DNA of 64,000 bases from an uncultured Candidatus Saccharibacteria bacterium (lineage in GTDB: Bacteria > Patescibacteriota > Doudnabacteria > UBA920), in assembly GCA_964505635.1 (NCBI GenBank), contig CAZDIP010000002.1, forward strand, positions 37,736 through 101,735, in the 5' to 3' direction. Both the position numbers and the translations under genes were made by a program. Below are positions 6,236 to 42,974 of the stretch, in pieces. The number at the start of each line of letters is the position of its first letter. Positions within the stretch are counted from its first letter, which is position 1. The notes beneath the pieces were generated by a model. It ran no database searches, was not told where the DNA came from, and worked only from the letters and a program-made list of their open reading frames with translations.

Positions 6236-6847
6236 ATGAACAAAACTATTTGGATAATTCTTGCCGCGGTTATAATACTTGGCGGCGGGATAGCGCTTTA
6301 TGCCAATCAAAATTCAGGCAACAAGACTCAAACTAAAAATGACGTCATGATGCAAGATGACAGCGCTATGCAAAAAAAAGATGATGCTATGGTGAAAGAA
6401 GAAGGAATGATGGACAAAAAAGACGAAAGCATGATGGAAAACAAAGACTCAATGACAAAAGATGAAAGTGCGATGATGAAAGAAGATGATAAAATGTCCC
6501 CTAAAGCGGGATCCGCCTCCGGCGAAATGGAAGCAAAACCAGGACTTTACACAGACTACTCCTCCTCAAAACTTGCCGAAGCCAGCGCAAACGGCAAAGC
6601 TGTATTGTTCTTTTGGGCTAGCTGGTGCCCCTTTTGCAAAGCCGCCAACGAAGCGTTTTTGTCCCGCGCCTCAGAAATCCCTTCCGGCGTAACCGTGCTT
6701 AAAACCAACTATGATACGGAAAAAGATCTTAAAGCCAAATACGGCGTAACTTACCAGCATACTTTTGTGCAAGTGGATGCACAAGGCAATATGCTTAGCA
6801 AATGGAACGGCGGGGACATTGATTCGCTAAAAGCGAATTTAAAATAA
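6236..6847 (+). CDS. Membrane-anchored thioredoxin-like protein with Met/Asp/Lys-rich low-complexity linker
   Basis: 203 aa; N-terminal transmembrane helix; linker MMQDDSAMQKKDDAMVKEEGMMDKKDESMMENKD...; thioredoxin fold with WCPFC active site. Confidence 0.8.
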   Translation: MNKTIWIILAAVIILGGGIALYANQNSGNKTQTKNDVMMQDDSAMQKKDDAMVKEEGMMDKKDESMMENKDSMTKDESAMMKEDDKMSPKAGSASGEMEAKPGLYTDYSSSKLAEASANGKAVLFFWASWCPFCKAANEAFLSRASEIPSGVTVLKTNYDTEKDLKAKYGVTYQHTFVQVDAQGNMLSKWNGGDIDSLKANLK

Positions 6848-6918
6848 ATATTGTTCGAGCGAAGTCGAGAACCAATAAAAAATTTTCTTCTCCACTTTGG
6901 TCGAAAACTAAAATTTTT

Positions 6919-7632
6919 ATGCTACAACTTTTATTTGCTGTACTTGCCGGCATGCTCACTGTGGGCGCGCCATGCATACTCCCCCTCCTCCCAATTCTTT
7001 TGGGCGCCAGCGTAGGCCAAAACAGCAAGACCAGGCCATTATTTATAGCCTTTGGATTCATATTTACTTTTTCATTGGCAGGCTTGTTTTTATCAGCCCT
7101 AGTGCAAAGTTTTATGATAGCGCCCGACGCCTTAAGAAATGCCGCAGTTTTTATGCTCGGCCTATTCGGCTTACTGCTTTTATGGCAAACGCCTTTTAAA
7201 AAACTGGCTGTTTATTTATCCGGCGCCGTTACCAGCGCAAGCTCGGCCGCAGGGCAAGCAGGCAGCGGAAACTTGGGGGGATTTGTTTTAGGAGCGCTCT
7301 TAGGCATAATTTGGACGCCTTGCGCCGGGCCGGTTTTAGGAAGCATATTAACTTTAATAGCCACTCAAGCCGACCAGGTCCGCGCGACTATATTAATAGT
7401 CGCTTACGCGCTTGGAGCGGGAATTCCAATGGTTTTAATTGCCTACGGCGGCCAATATATTACCCAAAAAGTCAGATGGCTGGCCAATTACTCGGAAGCT
7501 TTGCAAAGAATTTTTGGAAGTCTTATTATTGCCCTGGCCATAGCCATGTACTTTCAGTACGACTTAATTTTGCAGGCGAAATTATTGGAATTTTTTCCTG
7601 CCTGGAATTTAGCTAACCTAATTAAACTTTAA
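6919..7632 (+). CDS. ccdA: Cytochrome c biogenesis / disulfide-electron transporter CcdA (DsbD family transmembrane domain)
   Basis: 237 aa polytopic protein; conserved Cys pair in transmembrane helices (GAPCILPLLP ... TPCAGPVLG). Confidence 0.85.
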   Translation: MLQLLFAVLAGMLTVGAPCILPLLPILLGASVGQNSKTRPLFIAFGFIFTFSLAGLFLSALVQSFMIAPDALRNAAVFMLGLFGLLLLWQTPFKKLAVYLSGAVTSASSAAGQAGSGNLGGFVLGALLGIIWTPCAGPVLGSILTLIATQADQVRATILIVAYALGAGIPMVLIAYGGQYITQKVRWLANYSEALQRIFGSLIIALAIAMYFQYDLILQAKLLEFFPAWNLANLIKL

Positions 7633-13744: not shown

Positions 13745-16582
13745 CTAGTTGGAAATTGGCGCTTCCGAAACCAACTGGTTGTCGGGGTTTTGTTCCGGCT
13801 CTTTTGCCGCGGAAACCTCGTCCAGGGGTTTTTCTGGAGACTCTTCTATTTTAACCGGCTCATCCGGTTTGGGCGCTTTAGGTGTGTTTGGCTCCTCCTC
13901 GGTTAAGGCTGGTTTTTGAGCGTCTTGTGTTAAATCAGAAGCAACGGTTTCTTCATCTGCCGCCTTTGTGTCAATAATTTCTGGCTCAGCCGGCTCTGTA
14001 GCTGGCTCTTGGTTTAAAGCCGGCTCTAAACTTATGTCAGGCACAGCGCTTGCCATAACCTCTTCTTCCGAAGGCTCAGAGTCAAACACAATGCTGACGC
14101 TGGGCGCGGTATTTGAATCTATAAATTCGTCGTTGCTTTCCCCGGGGCTGGGATCGGGGTCTATCCAATTATTTGTTCCGTCAGGCATGCGGGTAAAAGA
14201 TTTGTTATCAGGCACGGATGCGCCGTAGTCGTAAGTTCTTTGGTCCACCAAAGAAGCTCCTTGCCAAAAATGTCCGTTGTAAAGCTTAACGGTATCGGTA
14301 CCGTCGTTGTCTAAATCAAAATCAGTGTCGCCCTCCCGATAAACAACCAAAAAACCGCCAGGTGCCACAGTTGTCGTGCCGGTATTGGTGTTTTCGGGTT
14401 TAATAAACAACTCATGGTAATTGTACAGGTTATAAGTAGCGCTTAAGCTGTCCAAACGCGCGTTATGCAAAGCGTCAGCACGAGTAAAAATAGCCTGCCA
14501 TTTTAAATACCTGCTATCCGGCAAGCCGGCAGCATTTAAATCCATGCCGCTTATATCGTCGCAAGCGCTAAAAGCGGAAAAATTCACCCCGTCGTTGGAG
14601 GTTGCGGCCTGAATGCAGACGTTACCGCTTAGGGAATTGCTTTCCGTCCAGGTTAAATTCTGCCAGTCAGCCCGATTGCCCTCGCCCGCGTCCAAAACCG
14701 TTTCTAAAGTACCGCTGCCAACCCCGCTTGAAAAAACCACGCTGCTTGAGCTGATTCCCAAATTAGAGGTTAAGCTGCTGCTCGCAAAATCCGAGTTGCT
14801 GGTCCAGGTTTTATTTTGTGCACTTCCCGGAGGTAGAAAATCATCGTACAAAACATAACCTTCCAAACTGAGCGGAGTGGAAGATCCATTATAAATTTCT
14901 ACAAATTCACCATCTAAACTGCCGCCAACACTACCTTGATCTGAGCCTGAAGGATTAGGTAAAAATTCATTTATCAACAACTGGTTTAAAGGGGAAAATA
15001 CCGGGCCGCAAGAAATAACTGAAGGTAATGGCCTGAAATTTACGGTCACGTTGCTGTCTAAGTCAATTGCGGGGCCGGTTAACGAAGTGCCTTCTTTTGC
15101 ATAAATTGCCAAAAGCGTACGGTTGGAATTAATATGCACATCCCCGCTTTGAGCGAAAAGTACCACGTCCCCAAGGTCAGAATTATTGCTTTCTGTTTCA
15201 ATGGCTGCGTCGTCGCCCGATTTGGGCAAAGAAGTGGAAATGAGCAAAAAAGTCCCTTTAGTGCCCGCGCCGTTAAATGCCACGTTGGCGCGGATGTCAA
15301 TTACCCCCTCCACAATAATTACGCCAAAGCTGTCGGCAAAAGCAGGATCCTGATTTATAACCACGTTGCTGTCTATTTTTAGATTACCATGCACATACAA
15401 AGTACCGTGCACATTTACTATATTATTGTTGCCAATTTCCAGGTTTCCCATAATTTCCGAAGGTCCCAAGTCTATAATTCCGCTGCTGCCTGGTATAACC
15501 AAACTTCCTAAAACCGTACCGCCGTCGTTGGCTTTGTCCTGCCAAAAAGCATTGTTAATTACCGGCAAGTCCTGGGCGGCTGACCCTGTGTTCGCACTCC
15601 CCGAAATAGTAAAGTTGCTGCTTTCTATGCTGCCGGAAACCGTCACGTCCCCGTTTATGTTTCGGTTTGCGCCTCCTCCGTTGGCTTCTAAATTATGATT
15701 GCCTTTTACTTGCCCGTTCACCGTAACATTAGCGGAAACATAAATATCGCCAAAGCTGTCGTTTGGTCCCGCAGCCATTAATGCTGTGTTTTCCGGGAAA
15801 TCAATATTTATTGGCTCGCACAAATCCGCCTGGGCAAACTGGTAAATTTTTATGTTAATCAGGCTAAAATGGCTGCCCACGCTGTCGCCGTCACAAGCCA
15901 CAGCCTTAACCACGCTGGTTTGGCTTACGGGCAAAGGCGGAATGGAATTTTTAAGGCCGCCGTTAGGGCCGCCGCAGTAAGGGTCGGAAAATACGTCCGG
16001 ATCAGTGCCTAAACCAACTGTATAAAAAATATGCGTGGCGTCTGAATCGCTGTCGCTAAATTCCACGTTAATGGAACTTGCGTAATTACCGCCGTCAGTA
16101 TTGTTCCAGCCAATATCCCCGGGCGGGGTTAAAACCGGCGGATCTATTTGCGCTAACGCGGCAGTGGTATTAATAATGTGCGCCTCAAAAGCCTGGAACA
16201 AAGGCAATAAAACCAAAACCGGAATTAATACCACGGCGGTATTATAAACGGTTTTAGATAAAAACTTTTTGAACAATGGTGGTTTTACCGTATTGGCCTG
16301 CGGCTTTAGTCCGTGGCGTTCGAAAATTTCCGCTTTTAAAACAGCCTCATTTACCACCCGCACCGGCACCCTCACTGCTTTTGGTTTTACTCTGCTAATT
16401 ACAAAGGGACTTACAATGCTTTTGTTATTTTTTGTCCTTACAATCTTTTTTACCACAGGCTTACCAACAAAAGTTTTTAAAGCCGCTGATTTTCGCTTTG
16501 CGGTCTTTGCCCGCGCCAAAACCAGACTTTTTTTCAAAGTCCTTGTTTTAACAACTTTTAATTGTTTGTCTTTTGCGGGCAT
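13745..16582 (-). CDS. Giant surface protein (945 aa): Lys-rich N-terminal tail, SipW-cognate-like signal/anchor, β-helix-like repeats, LTD domain, acidic Pro/Glu-rich C-terminus
   Basis: N-terminal roughly 100 aa Lys/Ala-rich; hydrophobic segment with FQAFEAHIINTTAALAQI (matching AFSAFEAHVINVTAR of the neighbouring genes); LTD motif INEFLPNPSGSDQG...EFVEIYN. Confidence 0.7.
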   Translation of the reverse strand: MPAKDKQLKVVKTRTLKKSLVLARAKTAKRKSAALKTFVGKPVVKKIVRTKNNKSIVSPFVISRVKPKAVRVPVRVVNEAVLKAEIFERHGLKPQANTVKPPLFKKFLSKTVYNTAVVLIPVLVLLPLFQAFEAHIINTTAALAQIDPPVLTPPGDIGWNNTDGGNYASSINVEFSDSDSDATHIFYTVGLGTDPDVFSDPYCGGPNGGLKNSIPPLPVSQTSVVKAVACDGDSVGSHFSLINIKIYQFAQADLCEPINIDFPENTALMAAGPNDSFGDIYVSANVTVNGQVKGNHNLEANGGGANRNINGDVTVSGSIESSNFTISGSANTGSAAQDLPVINNAFWQDKANDGGTVLGSLVIPGSSGIIDLGPSEIMGNLEIGNNNIVNVHGTLYVHGNLKIDSNVVINQDPAFADSFGVIIVEGVIDIRANVAFNGAGTKGTFLLISTSLPKSGDDAAIETESNNSDLGDVVLFAQSGDVHINSNRTLLAIYAKEGTSLTGPAIDLDSNVTVNFRPLPSVISCGPVFSPLNQLLINEFLPNPSGSDQGSVGGSLDGEFVEIYNGSSTPLSLEGYVLYDDFLPPGSAQNKTWTSNSDFASSSLTSNLGISSSSVVFSSGVGSGTLETVLDAGEGNRADWQNLTWTESNSLSGNVCIQAATSNDGVNFSAFSACDDISGMDLNAAGLPDSRYLKWQAIFTRADALHNARLDSLSATYNLYNYHELFIKPENTNTGTTTVAPGGFLVVYREGDTDFDLDNDGTDTVKLYNGHFWQGASLVDQRTYDYGASVPDNKSFTRMPDGTNNWIDPDPSPGESNDEFIDSNTAPSVSIVFDSEPSEEEVMASAVPDISLEPALNQEPATEPAEPEIIDTKAADEETVASDLTQDAQKPALTEEEPNTPKAPKPDEPVKIEESPEKPLDEVSAAKEPEQNPDNQLVSEAPISN

Positions 16583-16591
16583 GTAATAAAA

Positions 16592-17035
16592 TTATTTTTC
16601 TATATTTTGCAGTTTGGGCCCGAGGCTTCTGGCAATAACTCCGAAAAACGGAATTCTGAAAGGTTTGTCTTTTATGTAAACCATCCGTCCAACCACGTCT
16701 TTCGGGTTTACAGGCGCGTCTTCGGAATTGTTGGCGTCTCCTTTGGTAATCAGCATGCTGCCCTGTCTCCTTATAAGCCTGTGAATAGTAAAGCCCTGAG
16801 CGTTTTTATAAATAATTATTTGCCCCACTTTCGCTTCTTCTCCGCTTATGCCTTTCATTAAAATTAAGTCGTTGACTTTCAGCTGCGGCCACATGGAACC
16901 GGAAGTAATGGTGGCCAAAGGGTATGGAGTTTTTAAATAATGCGACAAAATTTTCGGGGTGTAATAAACAGCCAAACCGACAAATGCCAAATAAATAATA
17001 ATTTTTAAAACTCCTATCGCGATCTTTTGTAACAT
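16592..17035 (-). CDS. Type I signal peptidase, SipW/archaeal-ER type (S26B)
   Basis: 147 aa; transmembrane helix then ITSGSMWPQL (catalytic Ser in SGSMxP), conserved His in FTIHRLI, GDANNSED box; short single-domain form typical of SipW. Confidence 0.85.
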   Translation of the reverse strand: MLQKIAIGVLKIIIYLAFVGLAVYYTPKILSHYLKTPYPLATITSGSMWPQLKVNDLILMKGISGEEAKVGQIIIYKNAQGFTIHRLIRRQGSMLITKGDANNSEDAPVNPKDVVGRMVYIKDKPFRIPFFGVIARSLGPKLQNIEK

Positions 17036-17068
17036 TTGCTTATGAACGGGATTAAAAATTTTTAATTT

Positions 17069-17587
17069 CTACCATGGCTTGGGAATTTGGAAAACTATAA
17101 CTTTACCCCGATAGTAGCGGTATTCGGCAGAATTGGGAGTGCGGACAGTAAACTCCAGCTTTTCTCCCTGCCCGGATTTTAGCGTAAAATAATTTTTATC
17201 AACTTTCATTAAATCGCCAATCTCGCCGAATTTCCATACCATAATGTAACTGGAAACTTTGTACGGGCTTTGGTTGACCAAACTGACCGTCCTAACCGCG
17301 GTTTTGTCTTTGGGCAAGTCCCCAAAATCCAAACGCTCGCCGGTAGGGTTAACCCCTATTTTATCCGAATCAACCACCTGCACCAAAGCATCGTATTTTT
17401 CCGCGTTAACATACTGCACGGCCAGAAAAATAAACGCCAAAACCAGAATTATCCAAGCGGCCACGCGTTTTTTTGGCCTGGGTCTGGTTATCTCAGATTT
17501 TAATTCCGACAAAAATCCCCGCTGTTGCTCCCTTTCCATAACAGCCTTAGGCTTCATATGGCTGGGCATGTTTTCAAATGGATCCAT
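17069..17587 (-). CDS. Type II membrane-anchored accessory protein (hypothetical), immediately upstream of sipW-like
   Basis: 172 aa; cytoplasmic N-terminus, one transmembrane helix, about 110-aa extracytoplasmic β-rich domain; position analogous to TapA in tapA-sipW-tasA. Confidence 0.45.
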   Translation of the reverse strand: MDPFENMPSHMKPKAVMEREQQRGFLSELKSEITRPRPKKRVAAWIILVLAFIFLAVQYVNAEKYDALVQVVDSDKIGVNPTGERLDFGDLPKDKTAVRTVSLVNQSPYKVSSYIMVWKFGEIGDLMKVDKNYFTLKSGQGEKLEFTVRTPNSAEYRYYRGKVIVFQIPKPW

Positions 17588-17689
17588 AAATTTATATTGT
17601 TAAATAAAATTTGAAATTATTTGACAGGGTTAGCGTGCTTTCATCCCTCATCCCTGGCCCCAAAACAGGGCCAAAGGAAGCTATGAAAG

Positions 17690-19126
17690 CTAATTATTCT
17701 CGCAAACTGCCAAGCTGGCCAGTACGCTTTGCAGCAAAGTAAAGTCTGACGCGCTGTAGTAGTAAGAGGGCGCTGAGGCAACGGTGTTTTTTAAGAAGTC
17801 TTCAGTGCCCGCGGTTACGCCTACCCCGACCACATAAATCTTAATGCCGGCTGCTTTGGCCGCGGCGGCTGCCGCAGCTGCGTCGCCGCCCGCTGTGGGC
17901 TGGCCGTCGGTAATTAAGACTATAAAGTCAGGCGAGGTCGCGTCGTTACGGTCGCGCGCGCTCGCTAATTCAGCCGAGGCTGTATCCAAAGCCTGTTGCA
18001 AATTGGTCAAGCCGCCGGCTAAAAGAGCGTCTATGGCTGTATGAAGCGGCGTAGAAGAGCCGGTTAACTGCACGTCCAAAGTCGCGTCAGTGGAAAAACT
18101 GACCTGTGCGCCGTGAGGGCCAGTGTCGCTTAAACCCAAAGCCGTGACAAAGGCGTGAGCCGCTGTCTTCATGGTATTAAGTTCGGTGTCGCTTATGCTG
18201 CCGCTACGGTCTATAACCAAAGCTAAATCCAGCTGGTCGCTGCAAAGACCGCCGCCGGGCAAAGAAATGCCGGCCACTTCCACCCACAAATCACAGCCAA
18301 ACACTTTGTGTTCATTTTCTATAGGCTGGGTAAAAGCATTAGCCTGTTCCAAGGTGGTGTCTAAATTGCCGGTTTCCCTGCGGACAAAGTCCAGCCAGTC
18401 CTGGGCGCAATAGCCGCCAAAGCATGGTACGGCCAAATCTATCACCCACTTGTCCTGCGTATCCTGGTCTTGTTTGGACAAACGCCCCTTAGTGTCCAGC
18501 CAGGAAACCGTGCTGGTTCCCACCACAAAAGGCGTGTGGAAAGACTTGGTTACTTGGTCTACGGAAAGAGGTCCGTCTATATCCAGTTTTTCCCCGTCTT
18601 TGGAAATGTAGGGGCACAAGTTAGGCAGCAAACCCCAGCTTTCTGCTTCGTTTATATTAACTGTCTGAGTGTCGTCTACAGCTAAAACTCTGGGCGCTTC
18701 CCCGCAATCCCAGTAATAGCTTTCAACCACTTCGTTAGTGGAAGGGTCATCGCCGAATTTTACATGCGCGGTGCGCGTGTACATATGCGCGCCGTCCGGA
18801 CCTACTGAGTTGTCAAACGAACCGCCGTTGTTGGTGGTTATGGCGCACTTGGGTTTTTGGCGGATAAAGTATTCCACGTCGTCTACGCGGTTTTCCGCGA
18901 GGAAAGACGCGGACAAATTCACGTCAATGGTTTTTTCCAAATGCTCCTGCGGAAACACGGTGCCAAAATCCAAAAACTTGACCGGCACGTTAAGCGCGTT
19001 TTCTATCCTGGCCGTTACGTTTATAACGTGCGCTTCAAAAGCGCTGAAGGCCGCGGCGCCGGCGAGTATAACACCCAAAGTCCCGACGCCCAATATTAAT
19101 TTGTTGAGTATTTTTTTCATGTTCAA
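17690..19126 (-). CDS. Secreted vWA-domain protein with SipW-cognate-like signal peptide and Cys-containing N-domain
   Basis: 478 aa; LGVILAGAAAFSAFEAHVINVTARIENAL; FGTVFPQEHL motif; N-domain shared with the 19339-20181 paralogue; C-terminal vWA with MIDAS DRSGSIS and ITDGQPT. Confidence 0.8.
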   Translation of the reverse strand: MNMKKILNKLILGVGTLGVILAGAAAFSAFEAHVINVTARIENALNVPVKFLDFGTVFPQEHLEKTIDVNLSASFLAENRVDDVEYFIRQKPKCAITTNNGGSFDNSVGPDGAHMYTRTAHVKFGDDPSTNEVVESYYWDCGEAPRVLAVDDTQTVNINEAESWGLLPNLCPYISKDGEKLDIDGPLSVDQVTKSFHTPFVVGTSTVSWLDTKGRLSKQDQDTQDKWVIDLAVPCFGGYCAQDWLDFVRRETGNLDTTLEQANAFTQPIENEHKVFGCDLWVEVAGISLPGGGLCSDQLDLALVIDRSGSISDTELNTMKTAAHAFVTALGLSDTGPHGAQVSFSTDATLDVQLTGSSTPLHTAIDALLAGGLTNLQQALDTASAELASARDRNDATSPDFIVLITDGQPTAGGDAAAAAAAAKAAGIKIYVVGVGVTAGTEDFLKNTVASAPSYYYSASDFTLLQSVLASLAVCENN

Positions 19127-19167
19127 TCTTTTAAATAATTTACTTTTCTTAATTTTCCTTTCTTTCC

Positions 19168-19195
19168 CACTATATTACTAGATAGTAATATAGTG
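19168..19195. repeat. 28-bp perfect palindrome CACTATATTACTAGATAGTAATATAGTG (copy 1 of 3)
   Basis: 13-bp inverted arms with a 2-nt spacer; identical copies at 23796-23823 and 24318-24345; lies about 45 bp upstream of the vWA gene start. Confidence 0.9.
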
Positions 19196-19338
19196 TCGAC
19201 CTTTGCCCGGTTAAGCCGGATTTTTTACTTTACATTCAGCCTCCTAATATAAATGTCACCTTGCATAAAATTAATCCCTCTTTCCCTCGCCCCTCCTTTC
19301 CCTTAAAAAGGAAGAGCGAGGTATAAGAAAAATTAATC

Positions 19339-20181
19339 TTATTCTGCTGTGGGGGTGCTAGTTACACCATTTACTTCTACCCACAAATCACAGCCAAAAA
19401 TTTTGTGTTCGTTCTCTATTGGCTGAGTATATTCAGACGGATTAGCTTCCGGATTAACACCTTTTACAAAGTTTTCCCAATCCTGAGCGCAGTAGCCGCC
19501 AAAGCACGGCACAGCCAGGTCTATTACCCAGTTGTCAGTTGTGTCATTTGGTTTAGACACAGTTCCGCCGACATCTGTCCAATCAATTGTCTGATTTTGT
19601 GCATCCAATACCCAAGGTTTATGGAAAGACGCCAATGCTCCATCTTCGTAAGTTAAAGGTTCTCTGGAAACAATTTCAGAATGCTTGGACAAATACGGGC
19701 AAAGATTTGGTAAAACACCCCAAACCGCCTGAGAAAGTTCAGCATTTTCAGTTGGGGTTACAGGTCTTGTACCGCAATCAACATAGACATTATCTGCCTG
19801 TTCAACTGTTTCTGTGGCTGGATTATCACCAAACTTTATATGACCTGTCGCAGTGTATTCATGTCCATAAAAAGTCTGTCCATCCGGGCTGGTCAAAGCA
19901 CATTTTGGCTTTTGGCGGATAAAATAACTTACCGTGTCAACTCGATTTTGGTCATCAGCCAAAAACGAACCTGACAAAGTCACAGCTAAAGGCTTTTCCA
20001 GTTTTTCCTGCGGAAAAACCGTGCCGAATTCTATAAAATCAATCGGCACATTCAAAGCATTTTCTATCCTGGCCGTTACGTTTATAACGTGCGCTTCAAA
20101 AGCGCTGAAGGCCGCGGCGCCGGCGACTATTACGCCCAAGGTACCTAGCGAAAGTGTAATTCTATTTAGTATTTTTTTCAT
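19339..20181 (-). CDS. Secreted paralogue of the vWA protein N-domain (SipW-cognate-like signal, no vWA domain)
   Basis: 280 aa; N-terminal about 60 aa nearly identical to the 17690-19126 product; conserved YFIRQKPKCA, VPCFGGYCAQDW, TQPIENEHKIFGCDLWVEV. Confidence 0.7.
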   Translation of the reverse strand: MKKILNRITLSLGTLGVIVAGAAAFSAFEAHVINVTARIENALNVPIDFIEFGTVFPQEKLEKPLAVTLSGSFLADDQNRVDTVSYFIRQKPKCALTSPDGQTFYGHEYTATGHIKFGDNPATETVEQADNVYVDCGTRPVTPTENAELSQAVWGVLPNLCPYLSKHSEIVSREPLTYEDGALASFHKPWVLDAQNQTIDWTDVGGTVSKPNDTTDNWVIDLAVPCFGGYCAQDWENFVKGVNPEANPSEYTQPIENEHKIFGCDLWVEVNGVTSTPTAE

Positions 20182-20699
20182 AGTTATTCCCTCCGCATAA
20201 ACATTTTACAAATGCTAAATGTTTATGGGATTAATTATTTTTTCTTTTACTTTAATGTTCGGTGCCCAAAAATTGGAACTATTGCGCCCCCCTCTTGGAA
20301 GCACATCCCCTTGCTCCCAAGATGGGGGCCTGGGAACATTAAAATTATGCATTACTGCCGCTTGGCGGCCTCGACCTTTTTAATGCATGCCCTTTCCCAT
20401 AAAGATTTAAAATTTATGGTTTATGGAAAAAAGCGCAAATTAAAAAACCAAGCTAAAAGCTTGGGTCCTACATAGGGCTCAGGTTGTGTTTTAAACAATG
20501 TCCCTGAATTGGTTTCATAAGTTTTGTTTTGGTAAATAAAAAAGTCATTTTTTTCAAAATGGCCCGGAAATGACTATAAAATTTTGTTTTTATTATCCAC
20601 TACCAGTATAGTCAGCCATTTATTCAAACGCAAGTCAATTTTTTCCCTTAATTTTAAGGCGCTATGTGGATAATCTGTTGAGTATAAAGAGGTTTAATT

Positions 20700-20744
20700 G
20701 GGGAAAAACAGCCTGCTGCTTCCCTGCCTAAAAACAGCAGGCTG
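20700..20744 (-). terminator. Rho-independent terminator (10-bp stem CAGCCTGCTG/CAGCAGGCTG + T-run on the minus strand)
   Basis: Lies downstream of the minus-strand PEP-CTERM gene 20963-21529. Confidence 0.6.
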
Positions 20745-20962
20745 CCAAAACCCGAGAATTAGCTCTAAAAACCGTAAATACTAGTTATTTTCTTCATTAC
20801 TGTTACAATTAATCCTATTTAATAAATCGTTTAATGCTTGCATGCATTATATAACGCGTAATAAATAAAAATGTTGCTCTTAAATTTTTATGTACAAAGA
20901 AAAGCGGCCCACACCCCCGAAAGGATGTGAGCCGCCGCCGTGTTCGCCCGGTTAGGGGCGCT

Positions 20963-21529
20963 TTAGGCTTGGTTGTTGCGATTGCTGCGAAGTCGCCCGA
21001 TCGCGATCAGCGAGAGGCCGATGAAGGCGAGCGCGGCGGTGTAGGGTTCAGGAACATCTTGATCTGGTACCCTATCGCCATACAAACGAAACTGCATGTT
21101 CGCGTTGGCGTTGGTTGCAGTACCAGCAAAAACAGCCGAAACCGCAACATTGAAGTTGCTTTGGAAATTGGCCACATAGTCAACCACCGAGATGGCGATT
21201 TGACCTGTTGATCCGTTGAGCGGCCGGTTCACATCGTTGACCACGAGACCGCTCAAATCCCACGGCAGCAATGGCGAATCCAGAGCGAAGGTCGCTGACC
21301 CGGGCGGATTGAAGGGGTCATATGTCACATCCAACGCGTAGTTGAGCTCAATGGTCAAATTCGTAAACCCGACCGCTGAACCCAGCCCGGTGCAAGTCGT
21401 TGAACCATTCGGAGGCACGTTGGTAGCTGTGCAGGAAGACGACGAGATCATCGCTCCTTGCGCCGGAAGAGCAAGTGTCGCGACGGCCATGAGAAGGCCC
21501 GCGAGAAACGAACACACTTTCTTACGCAA
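20963..21529 (-). CDS. PEP-CTERM sorting-domain secreted protein (GC-rich)
   Basis: 188 aa; signal peptide; C-terminus VPEPYTAALAFIGLSLIAIGRLRSNRNNQA (PEP motif, transmembrane helix, basic tail); about 60% GC. Confidence 0.75.
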   Translation of the reverse strand: MRKKVCSFLAGLLMAVATLALPAQGAMISSSSCTATNVPPNGSTTCTGLGSAVGFTNLTIELNYALDVTYDPFNPPGSATFALDSPLLPWDLSGLVVNDVNRPLNGSTGQIAISVVDYVANFQSNFNVAVSAVFAGTATNANANMQFRLYGDRVPDQDVPEPYTAALAFIGLSLIAIGRLRSNRNNQA

Positions 21530-21630
21530 TCTTTTTTCCTCTTATATTTTTTTCACGAGCAAGCCATCAGCCTGCCCGACGAAACTTTGACCTAAGGGCA
21601 TGGATATCCATGTCTGCCCTCAAATCAAAA

Positions 21631-21660
21631 CAGTCGCCCGAAGGCGGCTGTTTTTGTTTG
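21631..21660. terminator. Bidirectional hairpin terminator (CAGTCGCC-CGAA-GGCGGCTG + T-run)
   Basis: Stem-loop flanked by A-runs and T-runs between the two minus-strand PEP-CTERM genes. Confidence 0.55.
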
Positions 21661-21859
21661 CGTATACATACTATAATATATTTTTTTAAAAAAAGCAAGT
21701 AGTTTGTATAAATTTTTATGGCTTATTTATGCCTTTTTAAAGGCTCACATGGACTGAGCCTTTAAAAAATCCAAAAAAAATAAAAGCAGCTCCCTAGAAT
21801 CCTTTGTCAGGACCTAAGGAGCCGCAGAGTGCGCTAGTCTGCCTTCTTGTTAGAAGACG

Positions 21860-22555
21860 CTAGCTATTACGGGTAGGGCGACGGAGCCGCCAGTGGGCTC
21901 CAAGAGCGAAAAGTGAAGCGCCGATAACGGCGAAAGTGCCGGGCTCCGGCACACCTTCGTCGTTTGGGGGTGGCACGGTGGCCACCACCGGCTGAGTTCC
22001 AAACCCCAGCGCCACGTACGTCAAAGTCGTGTCCACCGTTGCGCCTGGGATATTGTAAACCAACTGAACTGAGCCCTGAGCGAACGGGTTATGAGGCCCG
22101 TTCCCCAAAATGGATGCATTCCCGGTGTACACGCCGCCCGGGCCGGGTTGACCAATGAGCACATCGTCCGGTCCCGAAGACCCAAGCGCGGTCGTGAGAA
22201 ACCCAGGCCCGGACTGGTACCAGTCCGGATTTCCCAAGACAACGACGAAGGTGCCATCGCTGGCTACGTCTATCATGGTACCAGTGACAGACGAGAGCGT
22301 GCCCACCAGGCCGCCCAAGACCGTGAAGTTCAGTTGCGAAACGCCGCCCATGACGCTGGGCGGATCAGCCAAGTTGTTCGTCAACGACAACGTCAACGTG
22401 TTCGCGCTGAACGTGTAGTTGATTGTCACGTCCTGCGCCTGCCCACCGACCGTTTGGGTGAAGTTGATCGTTGCCGCCTGTGCCGGCAAAGACGCCAGCA
22501 ACAGGAAGACGATGATTACGGCCATCGCCAGCCGCTTGCCCTTATGCTTTCGCAT
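21860..22555 (-). CDS. PEP-CTERM sorting-domain secreted protein (GC-rich)
   Basis: 231 aa; signal peptide MRKHKGKRLAMAVIIVFLLLASLPAQA; C-terminus VPEPGTFAVIGASLFALGAHWRLRRPTRNS. Confidence 0.75.
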   Translation of the reverse strand: MRKHKGKRLAMAVIIVFLLLASLPAQAATINFTQTVGGQAQDVTINYTFSANTLTLSLTNNLADPPSVMGGVSQLNFTVLGGLVGTLSSVTGTMIDVASDGTFVVVLGNPDWYQSGPGFLTTALGSSGPDDVLIGQPGPGGVYTGNASILGNGPHNPFAQGSVQLVYNIPGATVDTTLTYVALGFGTQPVVATVPPPNDEGVPEPGTFAVIGASLFALGAHWRLRRPTRNS

Positions 22556-22852
22556 TAGGCCTCCTTCAAACTAACACGATTTGCCGCTTGCCTCCGGGCA
22601 GACTCGAGTTCTGCATACCCTGCCCAGAAGGCAAACAAAAGCTGCCTCTTGTTAGAAAACAGCCTTAAAGCATGTAAATTATACATAATTATAAACAAAA
22701 AATCAATCCTTGCCTTGACTAAGCGGCTCACATAAGTTACAATATAACGTTCAAAAAGGAGGAAACTAGCGAAATCTAGGAACTCGTTTTTGTCGTTCTG
22801 CCCCGCAGCGAGCAGGGCATACCAGAAACCAGAAAAAACAGGAGACACTCAA

Positions 22853-23686
22853 ATGAAGGCTTTTGCCTTTTTTATTTCTGTACTCGCGCTGGCGGTCACG
22901 CTCAGTGCTGCGCCTACAATCATGGTGGAAACCACCCTGGCACCCAATGCGTTTGGAAGCCCAAGCTATCCGGCCTGGGAAACCAACGCGGTCAACGCTA
23001 TGATTGGCGGCCTTACGAGCAATGGGACACCCGGCACCCCCACGTACTTCCAAACCCTGGGAGGACCCGTTCCGGCCTCCTGGTTGACTGTGACGTCCTT
23101 CCCATCCTGGCTCGGAACCGCCGACCCAGGAACTACCTTCGGACCGGCATTTGCAAGTGAACTCGGTAACAGAGGCGCGTTCCCACTCTACATCAACGGC
23201 AACGGAACACAATTCTCCATCAGCCAGCTCGCCTTCAACGCATTCAGCACCGACCCCGGCAATCTGCTCGGGTTCAGCTTTGCGGTTGGTTCGTACAACT
23301 ACGGAACTGGCTACGTCGGTATTCTGAAGGGTGGTGACAACACCCTCGGAACCGGTGACGACACCTTCATTACCGCCGGTCCCAATACGCAGATGGTCGA
23401 TGCACTTGCCGGAAGGGGAAGCGGCAACGCGCTCTGGCCGTGTGGACCGGGGGATCTCTCCCCCTGCGCCACAACCGCGGAACGCCAAGCTGCAATCGAT
23501 AGCATGGCAGCTAATATGGCAGGCTACTCCTTCACGGGCACCTACACGCTGATGGGTGCGACTGGCGGCGAGCTCGCAAGTGCGAGCGCAACCATCTACA
23601 CCGACGGAGAGGTTCCCGAGCCAGCCACTATGGGACTCATCGGTACCGCGCTCATCGGCCTCGCTCTGGTGCGCCGCCGCTCCTAA
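22853..23686 (+). CDS. PEP-CTERM sorting-domain secreted protein (GC-rich); start set at MKAFAFF, which is preceded by AGGAG
   Basis: Signal peptide MKAFAFFISVLALAVTLSAAP; C-terminus VPEPATMGLIGTALIGLALVRRRS; the ORF track's longer ORF begins at 22790. Confidence 0.75.
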   Translation: MKAFAFFISVLALAVTLSAAPTIMVETTLAPNAFGSPSYPAWETNAVNAMIGGLTSNGTPGTPTYFQTLGGPVPASWLTVTSFPSWLGTADPGTTFGPAFASELGNRGAFPLYINGNGTQFSISQLAFNAFSTDPGNLLGFSFAVGSYNYGTGYVGILKGGDNTLGTGDDTFITAGPNTQMVDALAGRGSGNALWPCGPGDLSPCATTAERQAAIDSMAANMAGYSFTGTYTLMGATGGELASASATIYTDGEVPEPATMGLIGTALIGLALVRRRS

Positions 23687-23795
23687 GCTGCATCAACGGA
23701 GATTTCGCTCAACCAACACAAAAGGCCGGACGCCCAACAAGCGCCCGGCCTTTTTACAACAAACAACACACAAAGAACAAAGCCACCCTTTCCCC

Positions 23796-23823
23796 CACTA
23801 TATTACTAGATAGTAATATAGTG
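23796..23823. repeat. 28-bp perfect palindrome (copy 2 of 3), abutting the stop codon of the YerC-like gene
   Basis: Identical to 19168-19195. Confidence 0.9.
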
Positions 23824-24315
23824 CTATTGATCCAACATCTTCTTTGCCGAATTTTCCGAATATTTTTTTAAAAGCTTTTTGTCCAAAGCTGCTATCCCCG
23901 CCTTTAACAAAACGCCGGCTACTGTCTTACGCTTCGTTTTGTTTAAAACTGGATTTTCAAAACTCTTTATAATTTCTCTTTGCTTTTTTAACTTAGCTCC
24001 GGCTAAACGTTCTAGGCTTTCATAAGCCTTACGTAGACCGTCGCCTTTTTCCATTAGAATATTATTAATTTTAGCGACTGTGCTGGGTGTAACTTTTACT
24101 TCTTGTTGAATTTGTTCGTAACTCTGGCCGCTTAAAAGCCTGTGGGAAATTTCCAAACGTTTAGCGAACATTTTATATTCCGTATGAGTAAATAAATCCT
24201 TAAACAACAACCTAATATCTTCTTTACTGTTTAATACAGTAAAAACCGCCCATAAATTGTTTATATACAGGCCAAATTCTTTGGGATCCAATTTTCTCCT
24301 GGAAATTTTTGTCAT
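23824..24315 (-). CDS. TrpR/YerC/YecD-like DNA-binding protein with C-terminal extension
   Basis: 163 aa; LFKDLFTHTEYKMFAKRLEISHRLLSGQSYEQIQQEVKVTPSTVAKINNIL matches the Trp-repressor-like YerC/YecD helix-turn-helix pattern; ORF bracketed within 1-2 nt by palindrome copies 2 and 3. Confidence 0.6.
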   Translation of the reverse strand: MTKISRRKLDPKEFGLYINNLWAVFTVLNSKEDIRLLFKDLFTHTEYKMFAKRLEISHRLLSGQSYEQIQQEVKVTPSTVAKINNILMEKGDGLRKAYESLERLAGAKLKKQREIIKSFENPVLNKTKRKTVAGVLLKAGIAALDKKLLKKYSENSAKKMLDQ

Positions 24316-24317
24316 AC

Positions 24318-24345
24318 CACTATATTACTAGATAGTAATATAGTG
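24318..24345. repeat. 28-bp perfect palindrome (copy 3 of 3), 2 nt upstream of the YerC-like start codon
   Basis: Identical to 19168-19195. Confidence 0.9.
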
Positions 24346-24437
24346 TCAAGCTTCAAGCCTATGTAATATGTGCAGCAAATCGGAAAACTAAAACACCGTC
24401 TTTCAGACAATGCTAAACGGTGTTTTGGCTTTAACGC

Positions 24438-42922: not shown

Positions 42923-42937
42923 TCTTTCTGGACAATT

Positions 42938-42974
42938 TAAAAGCCCTCCCGCCTTAAGGCGGGAGGGCTTTTAA
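42938..42974. terminator. Bidirectional rho-independent terminator AAGCCCTCCCGCC-TTAA-GGCGGGAGGGCTT
   Basis: 13-bp perfect stem between convergent efp (+) and the 782-aa repeat protein (-), with flanking A and T runs. Confidence 0.8.

Follow-up and report, generated by a model that had tools for sequence, protein, structure and literature searches.

In Bacillus subtilis the TrpR-type protein YerC has been recognised as HisR, a histidine-dependent repressor that acts on 20-bp palindromes (cacTTTA-N6-TAAAgtg), and its site precedes its own gene in about half of genomes, which indicates autoregulation (PMC9413887). Transcription control in the Patescibacteria (Candidate Phyla Radiation, CPR) is little known, and they possess few regulators. 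This work deals with a 64,000-nucleotide stretch of DNA (hereafter the window) from an uncultured Candidatus Saccharibacteria bacterium, in which a 28-nt near-palindrome lies on both sides of the gene of a 163-amino-acid (aa) TrpR/YerC-like helix-turn-helix (HTH) protein, and once more in front of a cluster of genes for secreted proteins. Comparison of sequences indicates that the 28-mer is probably the operator of this adjacent protein. The kind of regulator is already known, namely an autoregulated repressor of the TrpR/HisR family; what is new is the CPR-specific long subfamily, its 26-bp operator, the conserved operator-gene-operator layout and a rapidly diversifying specificity.

Several known systems resemble parts of this arrangement. 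In phage lambda the CI operators OR and OL bracket cI-rexAB, and lac (O1/O3) and gal (OE/OI) are further cases of dual-operator looping. SinR, on its part, is a small HTH repressor of tapA-sipW-tasA in B. subtilis.

The window protein has the same N-terminal fold and HTH as the amino-acid-responsive repressors HisR and E. coli TrpR, whose palindromic operators, with CAC...GTG-like ends and often placed before the own gene, likewise resemble the arrangement described here (PMC9413887). However, it is about 60-65 aa longer (HisR and the YerC-YecD proteins have about 100 aa) and carries two extra C-terminal helices; its site is a 26-bp ACTnnnnTAC-N6-GTAnnnnAGT and not the 20-bp cacTTTAnnnnnnTAAAgtg found upstream of his genes, that is, not a HisR operator; and a second predicted operator abuts the stop codon. 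Genes of the his and trp groups were found in none of the examined loci, and none adjoins any site. With lambda, lac and gal, the locus shares a repressor gene that would lie between its own operators, a few hundred bp apart and one of them over the promoter. In contrast to these systems, the spacing (about 450-560 bp) is set by gene length and shows no helical phasing, looping and oligomerisation are here proposals, and the location of the downstream site at the stop codon with near-nucleotide precision has no counterpart. As in the case of SinR, a gene for a small HTH protein stands beside an operon that encodes a SipW-type peptidase and secreted proteins of the fibre or adhesin kind, with a predicted operator in the promoter of this operon; the families are nevertheless unrelated (Xre-type there, TrpR-type here), the substrates in the window are vWA/LTD proteins and not demonstrable TasA homologues, and the link is found in three lineages only. 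Finally, repetitive extragenic palindromic (REP) elements with their RAYT genes are likewise short palindromes of identical sequence which can form hairpins, and they occur both around one gene and at dispersed loci, but the gene flanked here encodes an HTH protein without a Y1 domain, there are few copies per genome instead of hundreds, and the sites lie in promoters and co-vary with the HTH.

Three copies of the element in the window

The 28-mer CACTATATTACTAGATAGTAATATAGTG is present as three exact copies, all on the + strand, at 19168-19195 (PAL1), 23796-23823 (PAL2) and 24318-24345 (PAL3). These are the positions reported in the initial annotation, which also considered three identical copies to be beyond chance; in agreement with this, 100 dinucleotide shuffles gave no match. 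On the other hand, the element is not the perfect palindrome that had been described: it consists of 13-nt arms around a GA centre that is not self-complementary, it is recovered on the reverse strand with two mismatches, and the asymmetric centre has one common orientation in the three copies. The 26-bp core is ACTATATTAC-TAGATA-GTAATATAGT. Outside the three copies, the 13-nt half-site has no exact occurrence in the 64-kb window, and the two further matches obtained when two mismatches are allowed compare with about one expected by chance. The similarity between the copies is limited to the 28-mer and one C on its 5' side, the flanks being dissimilar.

The three copies are located with precision relative to the genes. 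PAL3, a predicted operator overlapping the promoter of the YerC-like gene, lies 2 nt from the ATG (24313-24315); PAL2, a second predicted operator without a good -35 context, lies 0 nt from the regulator stop codon; and PAL1, a predicted operator in the promoter of the vWA-172aa-SipW-LTD operon, lies 47 nt upstream of the vWA ATG (19120). The distances given earlier (0-2 nt from the stop and start codons for copies 2 and 3, about 45 bp from the vWA/SipW cluster for copy 1) are in accordance with these measurements.

The long TrpR/YerC-like protein

The regulator gene (23824..24315, minus strand) encodes a 163-aa TrpR/YerC(HisR)-like HTH protein with a C-terminal helical extension. Its only domain found in Pfam and NCBIfam is Trp_repressor (PF01371), matched by residues 24-98 with 39 bits and thereby above the cut-off of 27, which makes the protein a member of this family; this domain was present in 120 of 120 homologues among the matches listed. 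Against TIGR02531 (yecD_yerC) the score was 33.3 bits, under the cut-off of 42.2, which places the protein outside the HisR/YerC-YecD equivalog. A profile search of the PDB retrieved 3frw, 3g1c and 3kor, solved structures of the HisR/YerC type, and the N-domain of the AlphaFold2 (AF2) model superposes on 3frw, 3kor, 3g1c and 1tro (E. coli TrpR) with target-normalised TM-scores of 0.6-0.8. The model is all-helical, with the TrpR fold, and its HTH is formed by helices D and E (predicted local distance difference test, pLDDT, about 90 at residues 60-90), and the C-terminal extension of about 60-65 aa is predicted as two long helices (92-120 and 132-161).

The protein is a member of a long-form TrpR/YerC subfamily found in Patescibacteria, and no published description of this family was found in a literature search. 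At least 218 homologues were obtained in a word-indexed search, and there are 649 representatives of 50% clusters; more than 200 family sequences have 50-65% identity and nearly all are about 163 aa long. Homologues of the window proteins are labelled Patescibacteria, Parcubacteria, Ryanbacteria or Paceibacterota, which assigns the window to a CPR bacterium. There is one regulator gene per locus, no paralogue having been found within any recovered locus.

Conservation of the operator-gene-operator unit

The loci used for comparison were obtained by exact-protein look-up (4) and from metagenomes (48), and the counts of architecture refer to 43 distinct homologous loci. Neither the 28-mer of the window nor its half-sites were found around the closest homologues. 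Different palindromes stood there at equivalent places, before the start codon and right after the stop codon, and this led to the family motif: the palindromes of all lineages fit the 26-bp ACTnnnnTAC-N6-GTAnnnnAGT, and less pronounced preferences exist at positions 0, 5 and 7 (in fuller form, ACTnTnWTAC-N6-GTAWnAnAGT). When the loci and the window (650 kb) were scanned with this motif, 88 matches of at least 14/16 were found against 0.4 expected, and almost all of them flank the regulator gene.

The upstream site is located 0-42 nt from the ATG in 37 of the 43 loci, and the downstream site 0-12 nt (mostly 0-4) after the stop codon in 34, whatever gene comes next; the loci that lack one of them are mostly contig ends or carry visible divergent palindromes. 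The distance from operator to operator ranges from 452 to 563 bp, and no periodicity that would reveal helical phasing was found across these spacings. The genomic context of the unit is variable, since it occurs inside a pur operon or beside uvrA, secDF or scpB. The exact 26-mer of the window is also present in the metagenome loci L014 and L022 and on four contigs of the metagenome-assembled genome (MAG) CAZQFQ01. Between the window and L014/L022 the regulator gene has 59-64% nucleotide identity whereas the 26-mer has 100%, so the 26-mer is more constrained than the coding sequence.

Promoter overlap and protein-DNA covariation

A sigma-70-like promoter sequence, TTGACA-16-TAATAT (10/12, minus strand, 24349..24322), lies in or overlaps PAL3 and is the best match of this kind in the region. 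It ends 6 nt before the regulator ATG, which would make the transcript probably leaderless or nearly so. At PAL1, the sequence TCGACA-16-TAATAT (9/12, minus strand, 19199..19172) is found on the strand of the vWA operon, PAL3 and PAL1 being the top promoter matches in their region. In the set of loci, a sigma-70 match of at least 9/12 accompanies 17 of 35 upstream copies, against a background of 6.4%, and 7 of 34 downstream copies; the -10 is mostly at -12..+2 relative to the upstream operator. An operator overlapped by the -10 is the classic layout of a promoter-occluding repressor. The upstream copies are often slightly asymmetric through a perfect TATAAT (ACTATAATAC), and the downstream copies are purer palindromes. 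The position of the upstream copies over putative sigma-70-like promoters points to autorepression.

The second line of evidence comes from mutual information, calculated between all protein columns and all half-site positions with a statistic that ignores phylogeny. The top z-score (6.2, with DNA positions 5, 11 and 12) was that of residue 78, where the recognition helix begins, and residues 77, 81 and 83 are among the next-best covarying columns. In an hhalign comparison with TrpR, with the contact residues according to PMC9413887, residues 77-82 of the regulator fall on TrpR I79-R84, the DNA-contact part of helix E, and the covarying residues 77 and 81 align with TrpR residues that contact DNA. 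The types of recognition helix are associated with types of operator: VTPxT (the window included) with ACT-ATAT/ATAA-TAC arms and a TA... centre (TAGATA), VT[SA]RT with the centre ACGACT, xGT with the centre TGCGAC, and xHT with GCAx arms. The location of the signal at the recognition helix argues against a purely phylogenetic covariation, because shared ancestry would inflate all columns and not the recognition helix specifically.

Among the explanations proposed in the initial annotation, operators of the adjacent YerC-like regulator is thus the one favoured by the data: the unit is conserved across dozens of genomes, its motif is specific and it covaries with the recognition helix.

Proposed mechanism and the copy at the stop codon

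The regulator would bind the 28-mer as a TrpR-like dimer, possibly within a higher-order complex formed via the two C-terminal helices, which could supply dimer-dimer contacts. At PAL3, where the predicted operator covers the -35/-10/start region, the protein would repress its own synthesis. PAL1 lies between a -35-like AAGGTCGA and the start of vWA-SipW-LTD, and the secreted-protein cluster would in this way come under the same regulator. PAL2 may be an auxiliary operator that makes autoregulation stronger by cooperative binding or by looping over about 520 bp, or alternatively a roadblock against read-through; such roles for PAL2 are proposed with far less confidence than the identification of the 28-mer as an operator.

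The downstream copy is best described as part of the regulator gene unit. The possibility that it is the operator of a conserved next gene was ruled out, as the downstream genes are unrelated across loci (a 40-aa lipoprotein, purN, SDR, glycosyltransferases, hrcA and others); in about one third of the loci no co-directional open reading frame (ORF) starts within 200 nt after it. It does not behave as an intrinsic terminator either, given that the 28-mer is absent from the terminator-like sites of the window scan and that T-runs are lacking after the downstream copies elsewhere. A GC-rich bidirectional intrinsic terminator (23720..23754; hairpin of 16 pairs, 9 of them GC) is located 42-76 nt beyond PAL2 and is the predicted real 3' end of both the regulator transcript and the convergent PEP-CTERM gene; the syntenic locus L006 has a canonical terminator about 70 nt after the downstream palindrome. 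It is unusual for an autoregulatory arrangement that a second predicted operator should adjoin the stop codon in nearly all cases.

Related to this region, a conserved lipoprotein-like ORF of 40-45 aa (MKKIxLxxxLLxLLAAGCxK...SPKESYEELPK) begins 10-45 nt past the downstream operator in each of four lineages (L010, 7195-7317; L014, 10529-10651; L019, 2363-2485; L033, 8348-8485). It may be a small-protein target of the regulator.

Several observations weigh against the interpretation of the 28-mer as a simple operator of a symmetric dimer. The copies are perfectly identical, the asymmetric centre included, which is unusual for such an operator. The flanking copies are co-oriented in 23 of the 26 informative loci (inverted in 3), and upstream and downstream copies are identical in 12 of 31 loci. 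Exact copies lie inside purD and inside a glycosyltransferase gene of the related MAG. Copy identity, shared orientation and intragenic copies would also fit gene conversion or a process at the DNA level. Besides, the motif is absent from vWA/SipW clusters without an adjacent regulator at four other Patescibacteria loci, the covariation scores were computed without phylogeny correction, the AF2 model of the regulator is moderate (pLDDT 67), and the function of the site abutting the stop codon is a proposal.

A broader proposal, which we regard as rather doubtful, is that gene and sites form a self-contained autoregulatory cassette in which the 26-bp operator and one or two residues of the recognition helix (77/78) diversify jointly and so give rise to many types that are orthogonal to each other. 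Proteins that have kept 50% identity or more display no fewer than 20 combinations of centre and arm. In such a cassette, gene conversion or an orientation-sensitive gene-looping complex would keep both copies identical and co-oriented. If this were true, the reduced genomes of Patescibacteria would possess a small set of regulators, rapidly re-wirable, for surface-protein, purine and ribosomal-protein genes.

Two operator types have been observed in one locus, both in L021 (7324-7349 and 7393-7418) and in L024 (4772-4797 and 4894-4919). This suggests either that some genomes contain two or more regulator paralogues differing in specificity or that one protein tolerates changes at position 6; under the cassette proposal, the mixed types would correspond to several orthogonal, cross-regulating paralogues per genome.

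Alternative explanations

The palindromes might function in the regulator mRNA, where they would form stem-loops at the 5' and 3' ends with a role in stability, processing or termination, the protein being irrelevant to them. Each copy does fold into a stable hairpin of 12-14 bp, and the downstream copy lies in the 3' untranslated or intercistronic region directly past the stop codon. However, no U-tract follows the downstream copies, and a canonical GC-rich terminator is found 40-75 nt further on in the window and in L006. The non-Watson-Crick pairs of the arms show no enrichment in G-U (10/49 versus 17% by chance), and the arm mismatches cluster at the variable positions, ACT and TAC being invariant. 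Moreover, the -10 overlaps or abuts the left arm of the upstream copies, so that transcripts would begin inside the palindrome, and a search of the palindromes in Rfam gave no match. As an RNA-level role also leaves the covariation with HTH residues unexplained, it is considered improbable.

A slighter chance still is given to recombination, in which the copies would be att-like or cassette sites, as had been suggested initially, and the mobile part would be either the gene of the regulator or the PAL1-PAL2 segment of 4.6 kb. The identity of the copies, their single orientation in the window and direct arrangement in 23 of 26 informative loci, and the presence of the unit in very different contexts are what would be expected from a mobile unit; the three loci with inverted flanking copies are not. 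No integrase, transposase or other recombinase was found among the ORFs at 13.7-29.4 kb of the window or in the annotated flanks of related loci. The comparison of relatives that the initial annotation recommended has shown that relatives do not preserve the PAL1-PAL2 segment as one piece, whereas they do keep the site pair around the regulator gene; the enclosed gene is single in each locus, and its product is only a DNA-binding protein. Furthermore, the copy inside purD arose by an equal-length substitution, which is not what an inserting cassette would produce.

It is similarly improbable that the protein binding the element is not the YerC-like one but another regulator, a sigma factor or a nucleoid protein, of which the YerC-like gene would be merely one target. 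This explanation draws on the overlap between the element and core promoter hexamers (TATATT/TAATAT on both strands) and on its presence before the ribosomal-protein operons rplJL and rplA in one MAG. Nevertheless, operators without a -10-like sequence of their own (for example ACATTCATAC-AGTCGT-GTATGAATGT) still bracket the gene elsewhere, and the operator type of each lineage tracks the recognition-helix residues of this very protein.

The third suggestion of the initial annotation, a generic dispersed element of the REP or miniature inverted-repeat (MITE) kind lying near the regulator by accident, is hardly credible: the same 26-mer does occur in MAG CAZQFQ01 on four contigs, at loci unrelated to each other, but copy number is low (3 in 64 kb, 4 exact in that whole MAG, about 7 extra in about 600 kb) and not the high intergenic number of REP elements, the element is tied to one gene family and co-varies with its HTH, no RAYT or Y1 (IS200/IS605-like) transposase was found, the flanked gene included, and the flanks are dissimilar beyond the palindrome.

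A role as replication origin was also considered, given that the TrpR fold is like that of DnaA domain IV and that sites flank the gene, and it was rejected, as the cumulative GC skew has no inflection near 24 kb.

Candidate targets

With the operator reading, the locus gives a predicted regulator-operator pair for Patescibacteria, consisting of a family-wide 26-bp motif and a candidate specificity residue, together with a first set of putative targets: the SipW-dependent surface/adhesin cluster in the window, and pur and ribosomal-protein genes in relatives.

Sites other than those flanking the regulator are rare, with about 7 in about 600 kb of flanks (about 1 per 85 kb). L024 has two of them 26 nt in front of a TasA/camelysin-like gene that adjoins the regulator, with an LTD gene on the other side of the regulator. 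In L011 the regulator is followed by TasA-like, SipW-like and LTD genes, and a search in front of the TasA-like gene yielded no more than a pseudo-site with the wrong spacing. The regulator is linked with clusters of SipW-substrate-like genes in three lineages (the window, L024 and L011), and this link is lineage-specific, because the vWA/SipW loci of four other Patescibacteria have no motif. The AAGGTCGA element common to these four motif-free clusters is located directly 5' of PAL1 in the window; for this reason, the PAL1 operator appears to have been installed into a pre-existing vWA promoter in the lineage of the window.

An AAAGGTCGA element (window 19196-19204) is found directly 5' of PAL1 and is common to vWA-family promoters of other Patescibacteria. 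In L061-L064 it lies about 70-110 nt upstream of vWA-family genes and is followed about 20-25 nt later by TTATCAG, and it is again directly 5' of the rplJ site of MAG CAZQFQ01 (L001, 1393-1402). It may serve as a -35-like element of the promoter, or another factor may bind there.

The whole MAG CAZQFQ01 contains four exact 26-mers, one on each of four contigs. Two precede ribosomal-protein genes, by 20 nt in the case of rplJ-rplL and by 64 nt in that of rplA, and two are intragenic, in a GT4 gene and in purD. In the two intragenic copies (purD, L005 6668-6693; GT4, L003 7127-7152) the only open frame encodes T-I-L-L-D-S-N-I-V. In PurD the encoded residues take the place of a variable loop flanked by FHAGT and TNGGRVL, with ILLDSNIV versus KISDDQLV in a related PurD; since the length of the loop is unchanged, the purD copy evidently arose by substitution and not by insertion.

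In one lineage (L008/L012, 172-12417), the regulator gene and both its operators are located inside a purine-biosynthesis operon with the order purL-purQ-purF-[regulator]-purN-purD-HAD-Smr-purE-purM-purC. This operon and the purD site of the MAG hint at a link to purine metabolism.

Gene neighbourhood

The putative target operon (13745..19120, minus strand) encodes a vWA protein of 476 aa, a 172-aa protein, a SipW-type signal peptidase of 147 aa and an LTD-domain protein of 945 aa. Its products match Pfam VWA, Peptidase_S24 and LTD, and TIGR02228 (signal peptidase I) gave 76.6 bits. The 280-aa protein has 56% identity over 292 aa to the N-terminal region of the vWA protein, of which it is a true paralogue. 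On the other side, uvrA and uvrC come after PAL3, beyond the start of the regulator gene.

This type of cluster is common in Patescibacteria (window 13745-20181; L061-L064) and comprises one or more vWA proteins, vWA-less paralogues, a protein of about 170 aa, a SipW-like peptidase of about 140 aa, an LTD protein and a protein of about 650 aa; for the 280-aa domain alone the number of homologues exceeds 1100. The vWA/SipW/LTD cluster has the appearance of a system dedicated to the secretion and maturation of surface proteins.

As the initial annotation stated, and in agreement with the gene map, copies 1 and 2 enclose the 280-aa paralogue and three PEP-CTERM genes (20963-23686), whose GC content is 55-60% versus 43% for the window. 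Its further claim that the copies delimit this PEP-CTERM island describes an incidental arrangement, as PAL1 belongs to the vWA/SipW promoter and PAL2 to the regulator unit; an island bounded by the ends of a mobile element is a false lead that can now be set aside. The regulator gene itself is AT-rich (35% GC). In L006, a locus with 65% identity, a PEP-CTERM gene (6819-7445) of 58.7% GC likewise adjoins the regulator gene. Because both the GC contrast and the adjacency are repeated there, the PEP-CTERM island is an old conserved neighbour, neither a recent insertion nor an assembly chimera.

Elsewhere in the window, a 38-nt perfect palindrome, TTAAAAGCCCTCCCGCCTTAAGGCGGGAGGGCTTTTAA (42937-42974), which is GC-rich and has flanking A/T runs, is most likely a bidirectional intrinsic terminator.

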